Assembly (NCBI GenBank): GCA_051647685.1
Contig: JBOFEG010000028.1
Span: 1,449 to 65,448, forward strand
Direction: 5' to 3'
Source of the DNA: Chlamydiales bacterium
Lineage (GTDB): Bacteria; Chlamydiota; Chlamydiia; Chlamydiales; CALTSX01
DNA length: 64,000 nt
Below the pieces are notes generated by a model. That model did not search any database. It was not told where the DNA came from and worked only from the letters and a program-made list of their open reading frames with translations. Positions 7,579-8,787 of this stretch are shown here, piece after piece. Both the position numbers and the translations under genes were made by a program. Position 1 is the first letter of the stretch, and each line of letters starts with the position of its first letter.

Positions 7579-7630
7579 TTAATTTAAAATCAATGCTTTC
7601 AGAGCATAGAAAGAGAGGCGTATTGTCCTC
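7579..7630 (-). repeat. decayed duplicate of the yqgE 3' end (distal copy)
   Basis: 7605-7624 CATAGAAAGAGAGGCGTATT is identical to 8762-8781. The flanks are homologous: TTAATTTAAA at 7579-7588 and at 8735-8744. This copy reads GQYASLSML*, against GKYASLSMIPEDLSLN* in the live gene. Confidence 0.75.
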
Positions 7631-7639
7631 AAGACACAT

Positions 7640-7861
7640 TTATTCCTTAGATTTTTTAGAATCTAGATGATATTTATACAAAGACGTTACAAAAGAACCA
7701 GAGAACCCAGCAAGAAAGAAAAGATACAAATTTCCATCTCTGTAATACTCTTGCCATGATGGGTAATTGTGAAGTTGAATGCTAACTGAAAAAACGCCCC
7801 AGATAATTCCTATTATAATGAATTTTATCACGGAGCGTAGATCTATTATAAGAAATTTCAT
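7640..7861 (-). CDS. small two-TM membrane protein, immunity-like
   Basis: 73 aa with two hydrophobic helices (FIIIGIIWGVFSVSI and LYLFFLAGFSGSFVTSL). It lies 12 nt downstream of the Gly/Ala-rich ORF and has a decayed paralog at 6925-7137. Confidence 0.55.
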   Translation of the reverse strand: MKFLIIDLRSVIKFIIIGIIWGVFSVSIQLHNYPSWQEYYRDGNLYLFFLAGFSGSFVTSLYKYHLDSKKSKE

Positions 7862-7873
7862 TGATATTATTTC

Positions 7874-8263
7874 CTACGGACAAAAAGGAAGAGCTGTGAA
7901 GAACATAGAAACTGCAGCCGCAGTACCTTCTATAGCACTCACGGTGCCTGCAATACCGAGAGTTCCACCGATAGCGGCTGTTGTTTCTGCAACTGCGACG
8001 GCAGATCCAGCAGCAACATGTCCAACTGCTCGAGTCACTGCTGCAGCTGCAGCACCTACTCCGGCAGCAGTGGTCATTACACTACCTATTGCTGCGCCAG
8101 CCATACCGCCAGTTGCTCCAACAGCGCCGGCAATACCACCATAAATAACAGCTTTAGTTCCCCAATAAGCTATGGCACCACAAATTGGACCACCGCCTTT
8201 TCCACTGATCCCAAGTCTAAGTTTATAATCTTCCCCAACTGCCTCAAGATAAATTTTCCCCAC
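7874..8263 (-). CDS. Gly/Ala-rich glycine-zipper protein (candidate membrane-active toxin or bacteriocin-like)
   Basis: 129 aa from GTG 8263. About 95 residues form a near-continuous small-xxx-small run: GGIAGAVGATGGMAGAAIGSVMTTAAGVGAAAAAVTRAVGHVAAGSAVAVAETTAAIGGTLGIAGTVSAIEGTAAAV. The start codon is uncertain; see the upstream in-frame segment. Confidence 0.55.
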   Translation of the reverse strand: MGKIYLEAVGEDYKLRLGISGKGGGPICGAIAYWGTKAVIYGGIAGAVGATGGMAGAAIGSVMTTAAGVGAAAAAVTRAVGHVAAGSAVAVAETTAAIGGTLGIAGTVSAIEGTAAAVSMFFTALPFCP

Positions 8264-8362
8264 TTCTAAAACCCTTTCAAGGGAATGATTGGAAGGAGTA
8301 AGTTCAAGCCCTCGAGAAAGGTCATATGGCTGTACATATCTTTTTTCGCCAGATGGAAGTTA

Positions 8363-8482
8363 TATAAAAAAGCATTTATTTCCGTACCCGACAGATAATT
8401 CTCTAAGAGGATGGGAAGTAACTATATGCTGTTTCGAGATAAAAAATTCTCCTGGCTTACAAGGAACTGTTATAGGTAACAC
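8363..8482 (-). other. 40-codon segment in the same frame as the Gly/Ala-rich ORF, cut off from it by TAA 8360-8362
   Basis: GTG 8480-8482 lies 5 nt after AAGGAG (8488-8493). The product reads (M)LPITVPCKPGEFFISKQHIVTSHPLRELSVGYGNKCFFI*. Then 32 open codons lead into GTG 8263. Confidence 0.5.
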
Positions 8483-8734
8483 ATAAACTCCTTTTTTGAT
8501 TTTTCGGCAAGAATTTATTTAATAAGAGATTATTTAGCAAGATTATTTATGAAATTTTTTTTGAAGCTATTTCGATACAATATTAAGCTTTGTGTTTTGT
8601 AGGAAATGTAAAATTGTCAGAATAACTCCAACGCCTGAAACCTATACACTCACTTATCTTAGCTAGATATTTTTAAATAAGTGTAGATATAGTGAAATGC
8701 ATAGCTTAGTTTGGTTAGTCTTTTTAAGATTATT

Positions 8735-8787
8735 TTAATTTAAACTCAAATCTTCTGGAATCATAGAAAGAGAGGCGTATTTCCCTC
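8735..8787 (-). repeat. proximal copy of the duplicated yqgE 3' end (the functional end of the gene)
   Basis: See 7579-7630. The two 20-nt identical cores are 1157 nt apart. Confidence 0.75.

Follow-up and report, generated by a model that had tools for sequence, protein, structure and literature searches.

A second, decaying yqgE end in a chlamydial locus and the repeated refilling of the yqgE-p700 junction

The junction between yqgE and p700, two converging and often overlapping core genes of environmental chlamydiae, has been refilled repeatedly in many chlamydial lineages; copies of the yqgE end remain from at least eight independent events, with no integrase seen. One of these copies, here called Y', lies in the 64,000-nucleotide stretch of Chlamydiales DNA that was analysed (the window). 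Taken alone, the repeat in the window is a rearrangement scar of modest importance, and the comparative result is the more useful one. For the window itself, we lean towards the view that the hypervariable yqgE-p696 locus holds a second variant, stacked behind the resident one, with Y' at its left edge.

Chlamydiae are thought to be poor in mobile elements, with homologous recombination as their main route of DNA exchange. A hotspot with readable footprints is a concrete place to study gene gain in chlamydial genomes, and a second yqgE end would be a simple marker of recently acquired cargo in new assemblies. No description of a yqgE-end hotspot was found in the searchable literature.

The repeated yqgE end and its surroundings

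The features of the locus are, from yqgE to the far boundary of the variable gap:

8735..9307, minus strand: yqgE/algH (DUF179; Pfam PF02622, E 8.9e-39), intact, last gene of the mlaE-mlaF-mlaD-yqgE string
8735..8787, minus strand: Y, the proximal repeat copy and native yqgE 3' end (last 17 codons plus stop), with both flanks orthologous to duplicate-free relatives
8483..8734, minus strand: AT-rich spacer, whose yqgE-proximal 65 nt (8670-8734) are a remnant of the native post-yqgE region
7874..8482, minus strand: GA, a Gly/Ala-rich gene with a 202-codon frame and a nonsense TAA at 8360-8362; a pseudogene or a 129-aa remnant starting from GTG 8263
7640..7861, minus strand: X2, an intact ORF of 73 aa with two transmembrane segments (2-TM), the conserved partner of GA
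7579..7630, minus strand: Y', a truncated, decaying, non-coding copy of the yqgE 3' end that heads the distal block
7505..7578, minus strand: leader after Y', in which the region's best promoter-like match lies (TTGACT, 16 nt, TAAAAT, 7571 to 7544)
7295..7504, minus strand: o69, a 69-aa ORF, present in L082
7116..7295, minus strand: o59, a 59-aa hydrophobic ORF, present in L082
6918..7142, minus strand: X1-psi, a frameshifted 2-TM pseudogene at the far end of the distal block, with a terminator-like hairpin at 7005-7028
6453..6902, plus strand: DUF2992 gene (Pfam PF11208, E 8.5e-40), a window-specific addition to the gap
4327..6417, plus strand: p696, conserved, about 700 aa long and convergent to yqgE; it bounds the variable gap on the far side

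The original prediction described a duplicated yqgE 3' end with a 20-nt identical core, a common stop-proximal terminus and a distal copy reading GQYASLSML*, and on all these points it is correct. Y' and Y (7579-7630 and 8735-8787) are identical in 43 of 53 alignment columns (about 81%), with one 1-nt indel, which is non-random. The core, CATAGAAAGAGAGGCGTATT, occurs exactly twice in the window even with three mismatches tolerated (0 expected from 100 shuffles). Within these 64 kb it is confined to the two yqgE-end copies. The stop-proximal terminus of both copies is TTAATTTAAA, and the translation of Y' is GQYASLSML*. Orthologues of Y' lie at 1521-1575 in L082 and at 9940-10012 (73 nt) in L083, each followed by the same leader. 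Because these independent assemblies, from samples SRR13494436 (L082) and SRR18067478 (L083), hold orthologous copies, Y' is real and not an assembly artefact; together with the unique 20-mer and the absence of shuffle matches, the orthologues also rule out chance or low complexity as the origin of the repeat. The divergence of Y' between the window and L082 exceeds that of its flanks, which are 93% identical. Y' is a non-functional, decaying relic of an old rearrangement.

The repeated unit is a coding fragment with a weak 6-bp stem only, and no dif-like dyad was seen in it by eye. No third yqgE-end copy was found in the window beyond X1-psi; the sole additional match, a 16-nt AT-rich string at 3172-3187, sits within syntenic core DNA and was taken as chance. 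A VR/TR pair of a diversity-generating retroelement is ruled out: there is no reverse transcriptase among the neighbours, the 14 mismatches involve all bases and not TR adenines alone, and the C-terminus of yqgE is invariant.

Homologues of yqgE (n = 1597) carry the names Simkaniaceae, Rhabdochlamydiaceae and Chlamydiales, the closest being 95% identical and the others at most 68%, and the C-terminus GGKYA[ST]LSMIPEDLSLN is nearly invariant across Chlamydiota. In blastn, positions 11984-8670 of the window are collinear with 4052-7367 of L083, and the alignment of post-stop sequences places the DNA past the window's yqgE stop (8734-8670) in orthology with that of L083 and L086. Since this DNA is orthologous to the post-yqgE DNA of relatives, the intact yqgE end is the native one. 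Therefore Y' is not the displaced original end for which it had been taken. The native post-yqgE region of L083 and L086 encodes a convergent ORF of 185-188 aa that is deleted in the window, where no remnant of the 188-aa ORF was found at the protein level. The closest yqgE relative (P0001/L001) has 76 nt of contig past its stop, which match the flank of neither copy.

The bracketed gene pair in relatives

The genes between the two copies had been predicted to be a self-contained unit, and they do form a two-gene module, one of foreign flavour given the GA relatives on viral contigs. The Gly/Ala-rich ORF of the original prediction is the 3' portion of the 202-codon frame (8482-7874), which is interrupted by TAA at codon 41. 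All ten close homologues of GA (66-91% identity) are intact, 202 aa long and have Gln at this codon. GA has no Pfam or PHROG match and no Foldseek match in PDB or BFVD at E <= 0.001, and the two genes of the pair are alike in having no family or fold match. The model of GA has an N-terminal domain with pLDDT 80-88 and a low-confidence Gly/Ala-rich half. Relatives of GA occur in 23 IMG/VR viral contigs, most of them 25-38 kb in size, and are close to a P22-like portal gene in 10 of the 23; a phage family of roughly 37 kb carries such relatives. GA had no match in sequenced phages or plasmids. The 2-TM gene follows GA in L082, L083, L084 (homology only, no gene called), L086 and L087, and distant GA homologues also have a partner of 72-78 aa downstream.

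The pair lies 3' of yqgE in seven relatives, among them L083, L084, L085, L086 and L087, and the same pair is found in L082 and the window. The resident module of this clade consists of yqgE, the native spacer and the two genes GA and 2-TM. Between L086 and L083, collinearity starts at the mla genes and extends to the 2-TM gene inclusive. An empty site in which yqgE runs directly into DNA homologous to that below 7579 had been expected, and the comparison gave the opposite result. In L084, L086 and L087, yqgE runs into the same GA and 2-TM pair and no second yqgE end is present, in sequence that reaches the p696 orthologue (L084 and L086) or the next conserved genes (L087). The proposed island integration that delivered the bracketed genes is thus not borne out here, because relatives without Y' keep both genes.

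In the clade tree, Y' is found only on the branch of the window, L082 and L083 and, independently, in L002. Y' is about 80% identical to the gene end, and the GA/2-TM pair spans two sub-clades with core genes about 75-77% identical. Because the pair is common to sub-clades that are more diverged than Y is from Y', these identities suggest that Y' is younger than the gene pair it brackets. A later gain of Y' is more parsimonious than its loss from L084, L086 and L087, though such losses may have occurred.

Origin of the distal block

The extra material at the locus is the block that begins with Y' and extends from 7630 down to 6918. It comprises Y', the promoter-like leader, two small ORFs and the frameshifted second 2-TM copy, and is common to the window, L082 and L083; it therefore predates the split from these two relatives. 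All three have the order GA, 2-TM gene, variable part, Y', leader, variable part, 2-TM gene and p696. Their ancestor gained a block that started inside a yqgE gene, within its terminal 73 nt or more, continued with a different post-yqgE leader and small ORFs, and ended in another 2-TM copy beside p696.

The leader after Y' forms a separate sequence group (window, L082 and L083) unlike the native post-stop DNA. It is conserved in L082 and L083 and weakly resembles DNA past the intact yqgE of L002, a likeness that is short, AT-rich and not significant alone. Its promoter-like site is a consensus match only, and such sites are not above the chance count in the region. No family match was found for o69, a remnant of which (46 nt, 85%; 26 aa) lies immediately upstream of the second yqgE end of L002. 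The remnant and the weakly similar leader at the L002 yqgE indicate that material of the distal block belongs to yqgE loci of the other sub-clade.

A second and longer direct repeat abuts Y and Y': positions 6918-7142 and 7633-7865 are about 70% identical at the nucleotide level. X1-psi matches the 2-TM protein in tblastn (64% over 44 aa) and shares 65-72% nucleotide identity with each of the other 2-TM copies. The 2-TM copies are not in positional orthology: the closeness of X2 to the distal copy of L083 (88% identity) indicates a mosaic history. The DUF2992 gene is absent from the blastn maps of L082, L083, L084 and L086, and no tblastn match to it was found in any locus.

The stacked second variant accounts for the two direct repeats, Y/Y' and X2/X1, as the abutting ends of a two-unit layout. 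The block would stem from the homologous locus of a sibling chromosome or a related strain. It might have entered by one-sided homologous recombination that was anchored on the 2-TM/p696 side and joined illegitimately within yqgE. Alternatively, a segment from yqgE' to the 2-TM gene might have circularised and integrated via 2-TM homology in a single crossover. In neither route would a dedicated recombinase be involved. Later decay and indels would then have brought the GA nonsense mutation, the frameshift in the distal 2-TM copy, the trimming of Y' to 52 nt and the addition of the DUF2992 gene. The site may be prone to such rearrangement because an empty gap leaves yqgE abutting or overlapping its convergent neighbour: both genes would stay intact only after rearrangements that re-create a gene end. 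Several observations count against the stacked variant. An intact donor variant was found in none of the genomes. The interiors of the two units (7143-7578 and 7866-8734) have no blastn or tblastx match to each other, so that a common descent of the units is not demonstrable, and no homology was found between o69 or o59 and GA. Moreover, o59 is 92% identical in nucleotides to L083 9103-9269, on the opposite side of the L083 Y', and several further events must therefore be assumed. The joint between X2 and Y' in the window is probably secondary, judging from the L083 Y', which is longer (73 nt) and has a different upstream neighbour.

Insertion by homology-anchored illegitimate recombination that leaves displaced gene ends and orphan genes has a published precedent (PMC5361080): for the C-terminal displacement and orphan arrays of Rhs, CDI and T6SS effector-immunity genes, homology-facilitated illegitimate recombination (HFIR) was proposed (Kirchberger et al., 2017, citing Jackson, 2009; Poole, 2011). 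As in these arrays, a conserved part of the gene would act as the recombination anchor, and DNA newly added to the 3' end shifts earlier 3' fragments, together with small partner genes, downstream as orphans. Partial gene ends accumulate and an integrase is unnecessary. The second 2-TM copy resembles an orphan partner gene, and partial 3' copies in the same orientation lie downstream between unrelated modules, as expected under C-terminal displacement or HFIR. Unlike polymorphic toxins with their variable tip, yqgE is a housekeeping-type DUF179 gene with an invariant C-terminus. The duplicated piece is the conserved end itself, and the fragment in the window stands at the start of the distal block and was not pushed there by the proximal block.

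An in-situ tandem duplication is the strongest competitor of the stacked variant, if a rather unlikely one. Tandem segmental duplication and amplification arise by unequal crossing-over. Here, a segment from the yqgE 3' end through the 2-TM gene would have been duplicated by unequal or illegitimate recombination within one chromosome, and the distal interior would later have been replaced or have diverged. The topology Y, M, X, Y', M, X fits this scenario, with head-to-tail units that have a common flank fragment at their start and a common gene at their end. Such events do occur at yqgE: L005 has amplified further to three yqgE-end copies with paralogous leucine-rich repeat (LRR) cargo and identical unit junctions, and L064 has a tandem duplicate of the whole yqgE gene. 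The copies are lineage-specific, and in L023 as in L005 there is no difference between Y and Y', which is what duplication of the target itself would give. In contrast, the units of the window share their ends only (Y/Y' 81%, X2/X1 about 70%). No homology links the leader behind Y' to the native DNA behind Y, and the interiors of the units have nothing in common. Identity between X1 and X2 is only about 66-70%, compared to about 81% for Y and Y'. The longer L083 Y' with its other upstream neighbour fits poorly, as does the probably secondary X2/Y' joint. Because the unit interiors and post-repeat leaders are unrelated, this pattern suggests two different variants of the locus and not two copies of one.

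The yqgE-p700 gap across Chlamydiota

Truncated yqgE-end copies were found downstream of the gene in 6 of about 81-82 loci, whereas no more than 2 such cases occurred among 784 control ORFs (Fisher p = 1.5e-5). The copies occur on the same strand and downstream only, with scores of 26-87, while other-strand or upstream controls score at most 15. Partial 3' copies separate unrelated modules in the window, L082, L083, L002, L005, L018, L023 and L069, and their left edges range from 18 nt to the whole gene. Orthologues of p696 are convergent to yqgE in 35 of 81 loci, at stop-to-stop distances from a 4-nt overlap to about 9.3 kb; in empty-gap genomes, the frames of yqgE and p700 overlap by 4 nt or sit 0-27 nt apart. 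The gap of L042 holds one copy of the p700 3' end. Therefore the effect is not strictly yqgE-specific.

Gap cargo is diverse and includes effector-like genes (LRR, Ank, F-box, phosphatase, kinase), toxin-antitoxin and defence modules, and phage-derived pairs. In a donor test on sampled loci, the only cargo of other occupied loci found beside yqgE elsewhere was a histidine phosphatase, in L002 and L083. At the L002 joint, the o69 remnant and yqgE codon 116 overlap by about 2 nt. Which of the L002 copies is foreign is ambiguous in a 227-nt comparison: the distances of Y' to L002, L087 and L085 are equal, and 7 states link it to L085 alone.

The layout originally proposed for the window, in which a replacement end completes the gene and the native end is displaced, does exist with other cargo, in L023 compared to its empty sister L027 and in L002 compared to L085; in the window it is not found. 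The absence of an integrase or transposase in or beside the cassette was predicted correctly. Between 1449 and 21871, no ORF of the window has a recombinase domain, and the cargo of L002, L023 and L069 has none either. Among the 25 leading Pfam families of 57 gap ORFs there is no integrase and one IS200 transposase; a rare integrase may lie outside these 25. A tRNA, tmRNA or other known RNA as the true integration target was also considered, and no tRNA, tmRNA or Rfam RNA was found in or near the locus.

That the overlapping yqgE/p700 pair is a Chlamydiota-wide site at which a trans-acting recombination activity installs accessory cassettes at the last yqgE codons, with Y' as its footprint, seems improbable. 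If true, it would be an integrase-less, integron-like capture locus in obligate intracellular bacteria.

In the model of the original prediction, the yqgE 3' end was the target of site-specific integration by an island made up of GA and the 2-TM gene. The island would have brought a replacement end, its integrase having been lost or acting in trans, with Y' as the displaced original. The order of attL, cargo and attR fits, GA relatives are phage-borne, L023 and L002 show this exact layout at the same gene end, and three-copy arrays (Y, C1, Y', C2, Y'') exist in L002 and L005. According to published accounts (PMC8409611, PMC4482086), integrase-borne islands do use protein-coding genes, SGI1 the 3' end of trmE and others the 5' end of dusA. 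Such islands resemble the occupied loci in that gene-end direct repeats flank the cargo and a replacement end keeps the gene intact (yqgE of L023 and L002). They differ in that no integrase or excisionase lies in or beside the examined occupied yqgE sites, that the repeat length here is variable, and that the window has resident genes between its repeats and a native intact end. For the window, the island is already contradicted by L084, L086 and L087, which lack Y' and retain GA and the 2-TM gene in place, and is decidedly improbable. Native DNA lies downstream of the intact end, Y' appears younger than the pair supposedly delivered, and a second 2-TM copy lies beyond Y'. The left edges of copies vary from 18 nt to the whole gene, and no integrase was found in any occupied locus examined. 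There is no yqgE-like sequence within 5 kb of GA in the 23 viral contigs and no match to a known phage or plasmid. Of the hallmarks of an integrase island, a recombinase gene, cargo-free empty sites and a displaced native distal end were not found for the window.

In integron cassette arrays, attC-type imperfect palindromes separate the cassettes, and attI is served by an IntI integrase. The yqgE arrays share with them the newest-first stacking of small, mostly one- or two-gene units that are split by a repeated site, but have no IntI and no attC-type imperfect palindrome, and the repeated site is a lineage-specific coding copy; integron arrays have been discussed as a parallel (PMC5361080). 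Least probable of all is a dedicated, trans-acting capture of cassettes at the terminal yqgE codons that builds arrays including that of the window, the gene end playing the part of attI and each copy that of an attC-like site. The copies are duplicates of the gene at their own locus, matched to its lineage, and no portable site; they vary in length, and the one in the window is off any cassette boundary that would agree with the order of the resident genes. The p700 end has been copied too, and no candidate recombinase was found. In favour of such a capture, the yqgE site is enriched relative to control genes, copies in at least six lineages all terminate at or near the stop codon, arrays of the type Y, C1, Y', C2, Y'' exist, and cargo ORFs stop a few nt from the next copy in the window, L023 and L069.

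Layout of the yqgE locus

The duplicated 3' end of yqgE in the window is real; here it is the decaying relic of an old rearrangement, not the scar of an island. The minus-strand gene at 8735-9307, which follows mlaE, mlaF and mlaD in this order, encodes a YqgE/AlgH (DUF179) protein (yqgE/algH) with homologs in Simkaniaceae, Rhabdochlamydiaceae and other environmental chlamydiae. At its C-terminus, the motif GGKYA[ST]LSMIPEDLSLN hardly varies. A stretch of 17 codons plus stop from the 3' end of this gene (Y) recurs downstream as Y', with 43 of 53 aligned positions identical and one 1-nt indel. 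The exact core of 20 nt occurs only in Y and Y' in the 64 kb, even with three mismatches allowed, and shuffled sequence gave no comparable match. The duplication described in the original prediction is thus confirmed, and its core is not a repeat dispersed within the window. A 16-nt exact match to the yqgE stop region (TTTAAATTAAAATAAT, 3172-3187, minus strand), AT-rich and situated in core DNA of otherwise conserved synteny, is probably due to chance. The elements of the locus with mapped positions are as follows:

8735-8787, minus strand: Y, the intact yqgE 3' end
8482-7874: GA, a Gly/Ala-rich gene, 202-codon frame broken by an in-frame TAA at 8360-8362 (codon 41)
7640-7861: X2, an intact 73-aa ORF with two transmembrane segments (2-TM)
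7579-7630, minus strand: Y', the copy of the yqgE 3' end
7116-7295: o59, a small ORF
6918-7142: X1-psi, a frameshifted pseudogene copy of the 2-TM ORF
6453-6902: DUF2992 gene, between X1-psi and p696
4327-6417: p696, a conserved gene convergent to yqgE

Along the direction of yqgE, Y is succeeded by a spacer, GA, X2, Y', the leader, the small ORFs o69 and o59, X1-psi, and then the convergent DUF2992 gene and p696. A second direct repeat adjoins that of Y and Y': 6918-7142 matches 7633-7865 at ~70% nucleotide identity, and X2 therefore has its pseudogene copy further downstream. The leader after Y' holds the best promoter-like site of the region. The Gly/Ala-rich ORF noticed earlier is the tail of the GA frame. 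All ten close homologs of GA are intact, exactly 202 aa long, and carry Gln at the position of the TAA, which probably reflects either a recent nonsense mutation or an error in sequencing. Searches around the locus found no tRNA, Rfam RNA, integrase or transposase, in agreement with the earlier statement that neither of the latter two lies in or beside the cassette.

Relatives of the window and the origin of the distal block

Exact-protein look-ups and one genome scan yielded seven informative relatives (loci L082-L087 and L002), with 75-93% nucleotide identity in conserved parts. A tree on mlaF through yqgE reads ((L086,L084),(L083,window)),((L087,L002),L085). L082 does not include this segment and was left out; it has 93% nucleotide identity to the window over their common GA-to-o59 and p696 DNA. 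GA and the 2-TM gene are found downstream of yqgE in all informative relatives but L002. The distance from the yqgE stop to the GA start is 88 nt in L087, and ~560 nt separate yqgE and GA in L084, while L086, L083 and L085 have a convergent ORF of ~185 aa in between, joined in L085 by a defence-like RloB/AAA_21 pair (5872-7781). Between L086 and L083, collinearity extends from the mla genes up to and including the 2-TM gene.

The original prediction took GA and the 2-TM gene for an integrated cassette and Y' for the displaced original yqgE end. A search of relatives for the empty site found no second yqgE end in L084, L086 and L087, yet GA and the 2-TM gene follow yqgE there. Furthermore, the 65 nt 3' of the intact yqgE stop of the window are orthologous to the post-yqgE DNA of L083 and L086, and the DNA that follows Y' falls into another sequence group, one common only to the window, L082 and L083. 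Therefore, the resident elements are the intact yqgE end and the two genes between the repeats, the block headed by Y' is the addition, and the predicted scar is not borne out in the window. In the window, the defining features tested for integrase-borne islands were absent, as were those of integrons and of diversity-generating retroelements.

The window, L082 and L083 carry orthologous copies of Y', which are hence older than the split of these three (window-L083 core identity ~87%). The window and L083 have in common the arrangement GA, 2-TM gene, variable DNA, Y', leader, variable DNA, 2-TM gene, p696. Their intergenic DNA is already poorly alignable, yet Y' is still ~80% identical to Y; by this rate argument, Y' would postdate the root of the clade, where GA and the 2-TM gene already stood. 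In L083, Y' is longer (73 nt) and has a different upstream neighbor, so the tight joint between X2 and Y' in the window is probably secondary. The o59 ORF of the window (7129-7295) is 92% identical to L083 9103-9269. The DUF2992 gene, which among the compared loci occurs in the window only (it is missing from L082, L083, L084 and L086), is a further lineage-specific addition to the yqgE-p696 gap.

The distal block starts inside yqgE, has a different post-yqgE leader and ends in a 2-TM copy. The other sub-clade has pieces of it at its yqgE locus: in L002, an o69 remnant lies directly upstream of the second yqgE end, and a leader weakly similar to that of the block follows the intact yqgE. We therefore take the block to be a second variant of this variable locus that was stacked behind the resident one. 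It may have come in through homologous recombination on one side only, with the 2-TM/p696 flank as anchor and an illegitimate joint within yqgE; alternatively, a segment from the truncated yqgE to the 2-TM gene may have circularized and been inserted by a single crossover in the 2-TM homology. The comparison establishes the arrangement and its age, while donor and kind of joint are inferred. The main rival is a plain tandem duplication in situ, with the interior replaced afterwards; the interiors of the proximal and distal units cannot be aligned with each other. The 2-TM copies show no positional orthology, which fits a mosaic history.

Other cargo is seen in the same gap. A histidine-phosphatase gene within it has 88% nucleotide identity between L002 (11279-11885) and L083 (9331-9937), whereas core genes reach only ~75-78%, which suggests recent exchange between these lineages; o59, at 92% between the window and L083, is a similar case. 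Toxin-antitoxin or defence-like modules occupy the gap of L082 (Gp49/HigB-like toxin upstream of GA, 1-589), L083 (HTH protein and zeta toxin, 10021-11002) and L085.

Gene-end copies in the yqgE-p700 gap across chlamydiae

A truncated copy of the yqgE end is present downstream on the same strand in 5 of 81 chlamydial yqgE loci (L069, L002, L023, L005, L018), or 6 of 82 with the window. Copies score 26-87; searched against the opposite strand or the upstream side, each query reaches at most 15. The control set of 784 other ORFs from these loci yielded eight with a downstream 3'-end copy, six being full-length tandem paralogs and two marginal (Fisher's test, 6/82 versus 2/784, p = 1.5e-5). L064 carries a whole-gene tandem duplicate: its complete second yqgE (5910-6466) begins 5 nt after the first, is frameshifted and has ~50% amino acid identity to the window YqgE, compared to 60% for the first. 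The right edge of the truncated copies lies at the stop codon or within a few nt; left edges range from 18 to 227 nt. The adjacent cargo is unrelated between lineages (Fic protein; RelE-like and HTH pair; LRR proteins; kinase/phosphatase/monooxygenase cluster; HTH-STAND ATPase). L002 and L005 have arrays of three copies each, and the junctions in L005 are identical in both units, as expected from amplification between repeats.

Two clean cases show a displaced native end. In L023, two identical 41-nt copies enclose a 931-nt toxin-antitoxin insert, and the sister genome L027 has a single copy; the distal copy retains the native AAT TAA and native downstream DNA, and the proximal one ends in AAC TGA. 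In L002, the distal copy has 227 nt and a TAG stop; together with the 142 nt that follow, it matches L085 from the yqgE end into the DNA downstream. Thus, the originally predicted layout exists at the yqgE end, though not in the window, and it is the same as in integrase-borne islands at gene ends. In recent cases both copies are identical to each other and lineage-specific; a duplication derived from the target, or a donor of the same species, is hence favored over a portable att site. The concept that comes closest is C-terminal displacement, by which orphan-module arrays form in Rhs, CDI and T6SS loci. At yqgE, however, an invariant housekeeping-type gene end is duplicated, toxin function is only putative, and the yqgE fragment of the window heads the distal block.

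The ~700-aa p696 ortholog (p700) is convergent to yqgE in 35 of 81 loci. Where the gap is empty, the two frames either share 4 nt (TTAATTAA) or are separated by 0-27 nt; the palindrome TTAATTAA is common to both genes in the empty-gap genomes L027 (~10540-10552), L081, L048 and L026, although the frames abut rather than overlap in L026. Occupied gaps reach ~9 kb, and a census of 57 ORFs from gaps shows LRR, ankyrin, F-box, tyrosine phosphatase, kinase, permease, zeta-toxin and DUF4143 ATPase domains and one IS200 transposase, with no integrase among the 25 leading families listed. As there is no intergenic room, both genes would stay intact only if an insertion re-created a gene end, and we think that this explains the footprints. 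L042 has a 28-nt copy of the p700 3' end (13073-13100) in a 5.3-kb gap, ~2.7 kb from the p700 gene. It mirrors the yqgE-end copies, so the effect is not strictly tied to yqgE. Literature searches returned no account of yqgE serving as an insertion site in chlamydiae; the interest lies in gene-end duplications that recur across Chlamydiota, free of integrases, at a single pair of overlapping convergent genes.

Smaller repeats accompany several copies. The second yqgE end of L023 (9234-9453) is split by a 167-nt palindromic element (67-nt arms, 81% complementary); bordered by TATACCA and TATGCCA, it resembles a small inverted-repeat element with a target duplication of 7 nt. L018 has several nested duplications just after yqgE (10535-11254): the last 15 nt of yqgE and 44 nt downstream recur at a distance of 337 nt (97%), an older copy of 57 nt is found at 611 nt, and long hairpin-forming repeats (arms of 41 and 61 nt) stand between copies. 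In L069, a 29-nt repeat with the core motif ATCACGATTTTCCTGAAAAAA occurs five times (10549-10677; starts 20 or 30 nt apart); the array starts at the stop codon of yqgE and precedes the inserted Fic gene. These repeats could be binding sites for a regulator.

GA and its membrane partner

GA combines an N-terminal domain of ~85 aa, modeled confidently in the predicted structure, with an invariant GGGP..YW.TK..YG motif, a Gly/Ala-rich hydrophobic half and a PF[LC]P terminus; family and fold searches gave no match. As a guess, GA and the 2-TM protein might be a membrane toxin or exclusion protein and its protective partner. Distant homologs, in the contexts examined, are followed by a 72-78-aa membrane partner, and lie between the portal and terminase genes of a tailed-phage-like contig. 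Relatives occur in such contigs (L088, L092, L094, L096, L098, L106-L108, L110, L112), a family with a P22-type portal and large terminase, several of 31-38 kb; GA lies within a few kb of the portal gene, on the opposite strand where both are fully seen. In IMG/VR, 23 contigs (most 25-38 kb) carry relatives, ten of them near a related portal gene. The resident pair is therefore probably of phage origin, acquired before the clade diversified. In L088 (3772-10152), a 78-aa hydrophobic ORF follows the GA relative.
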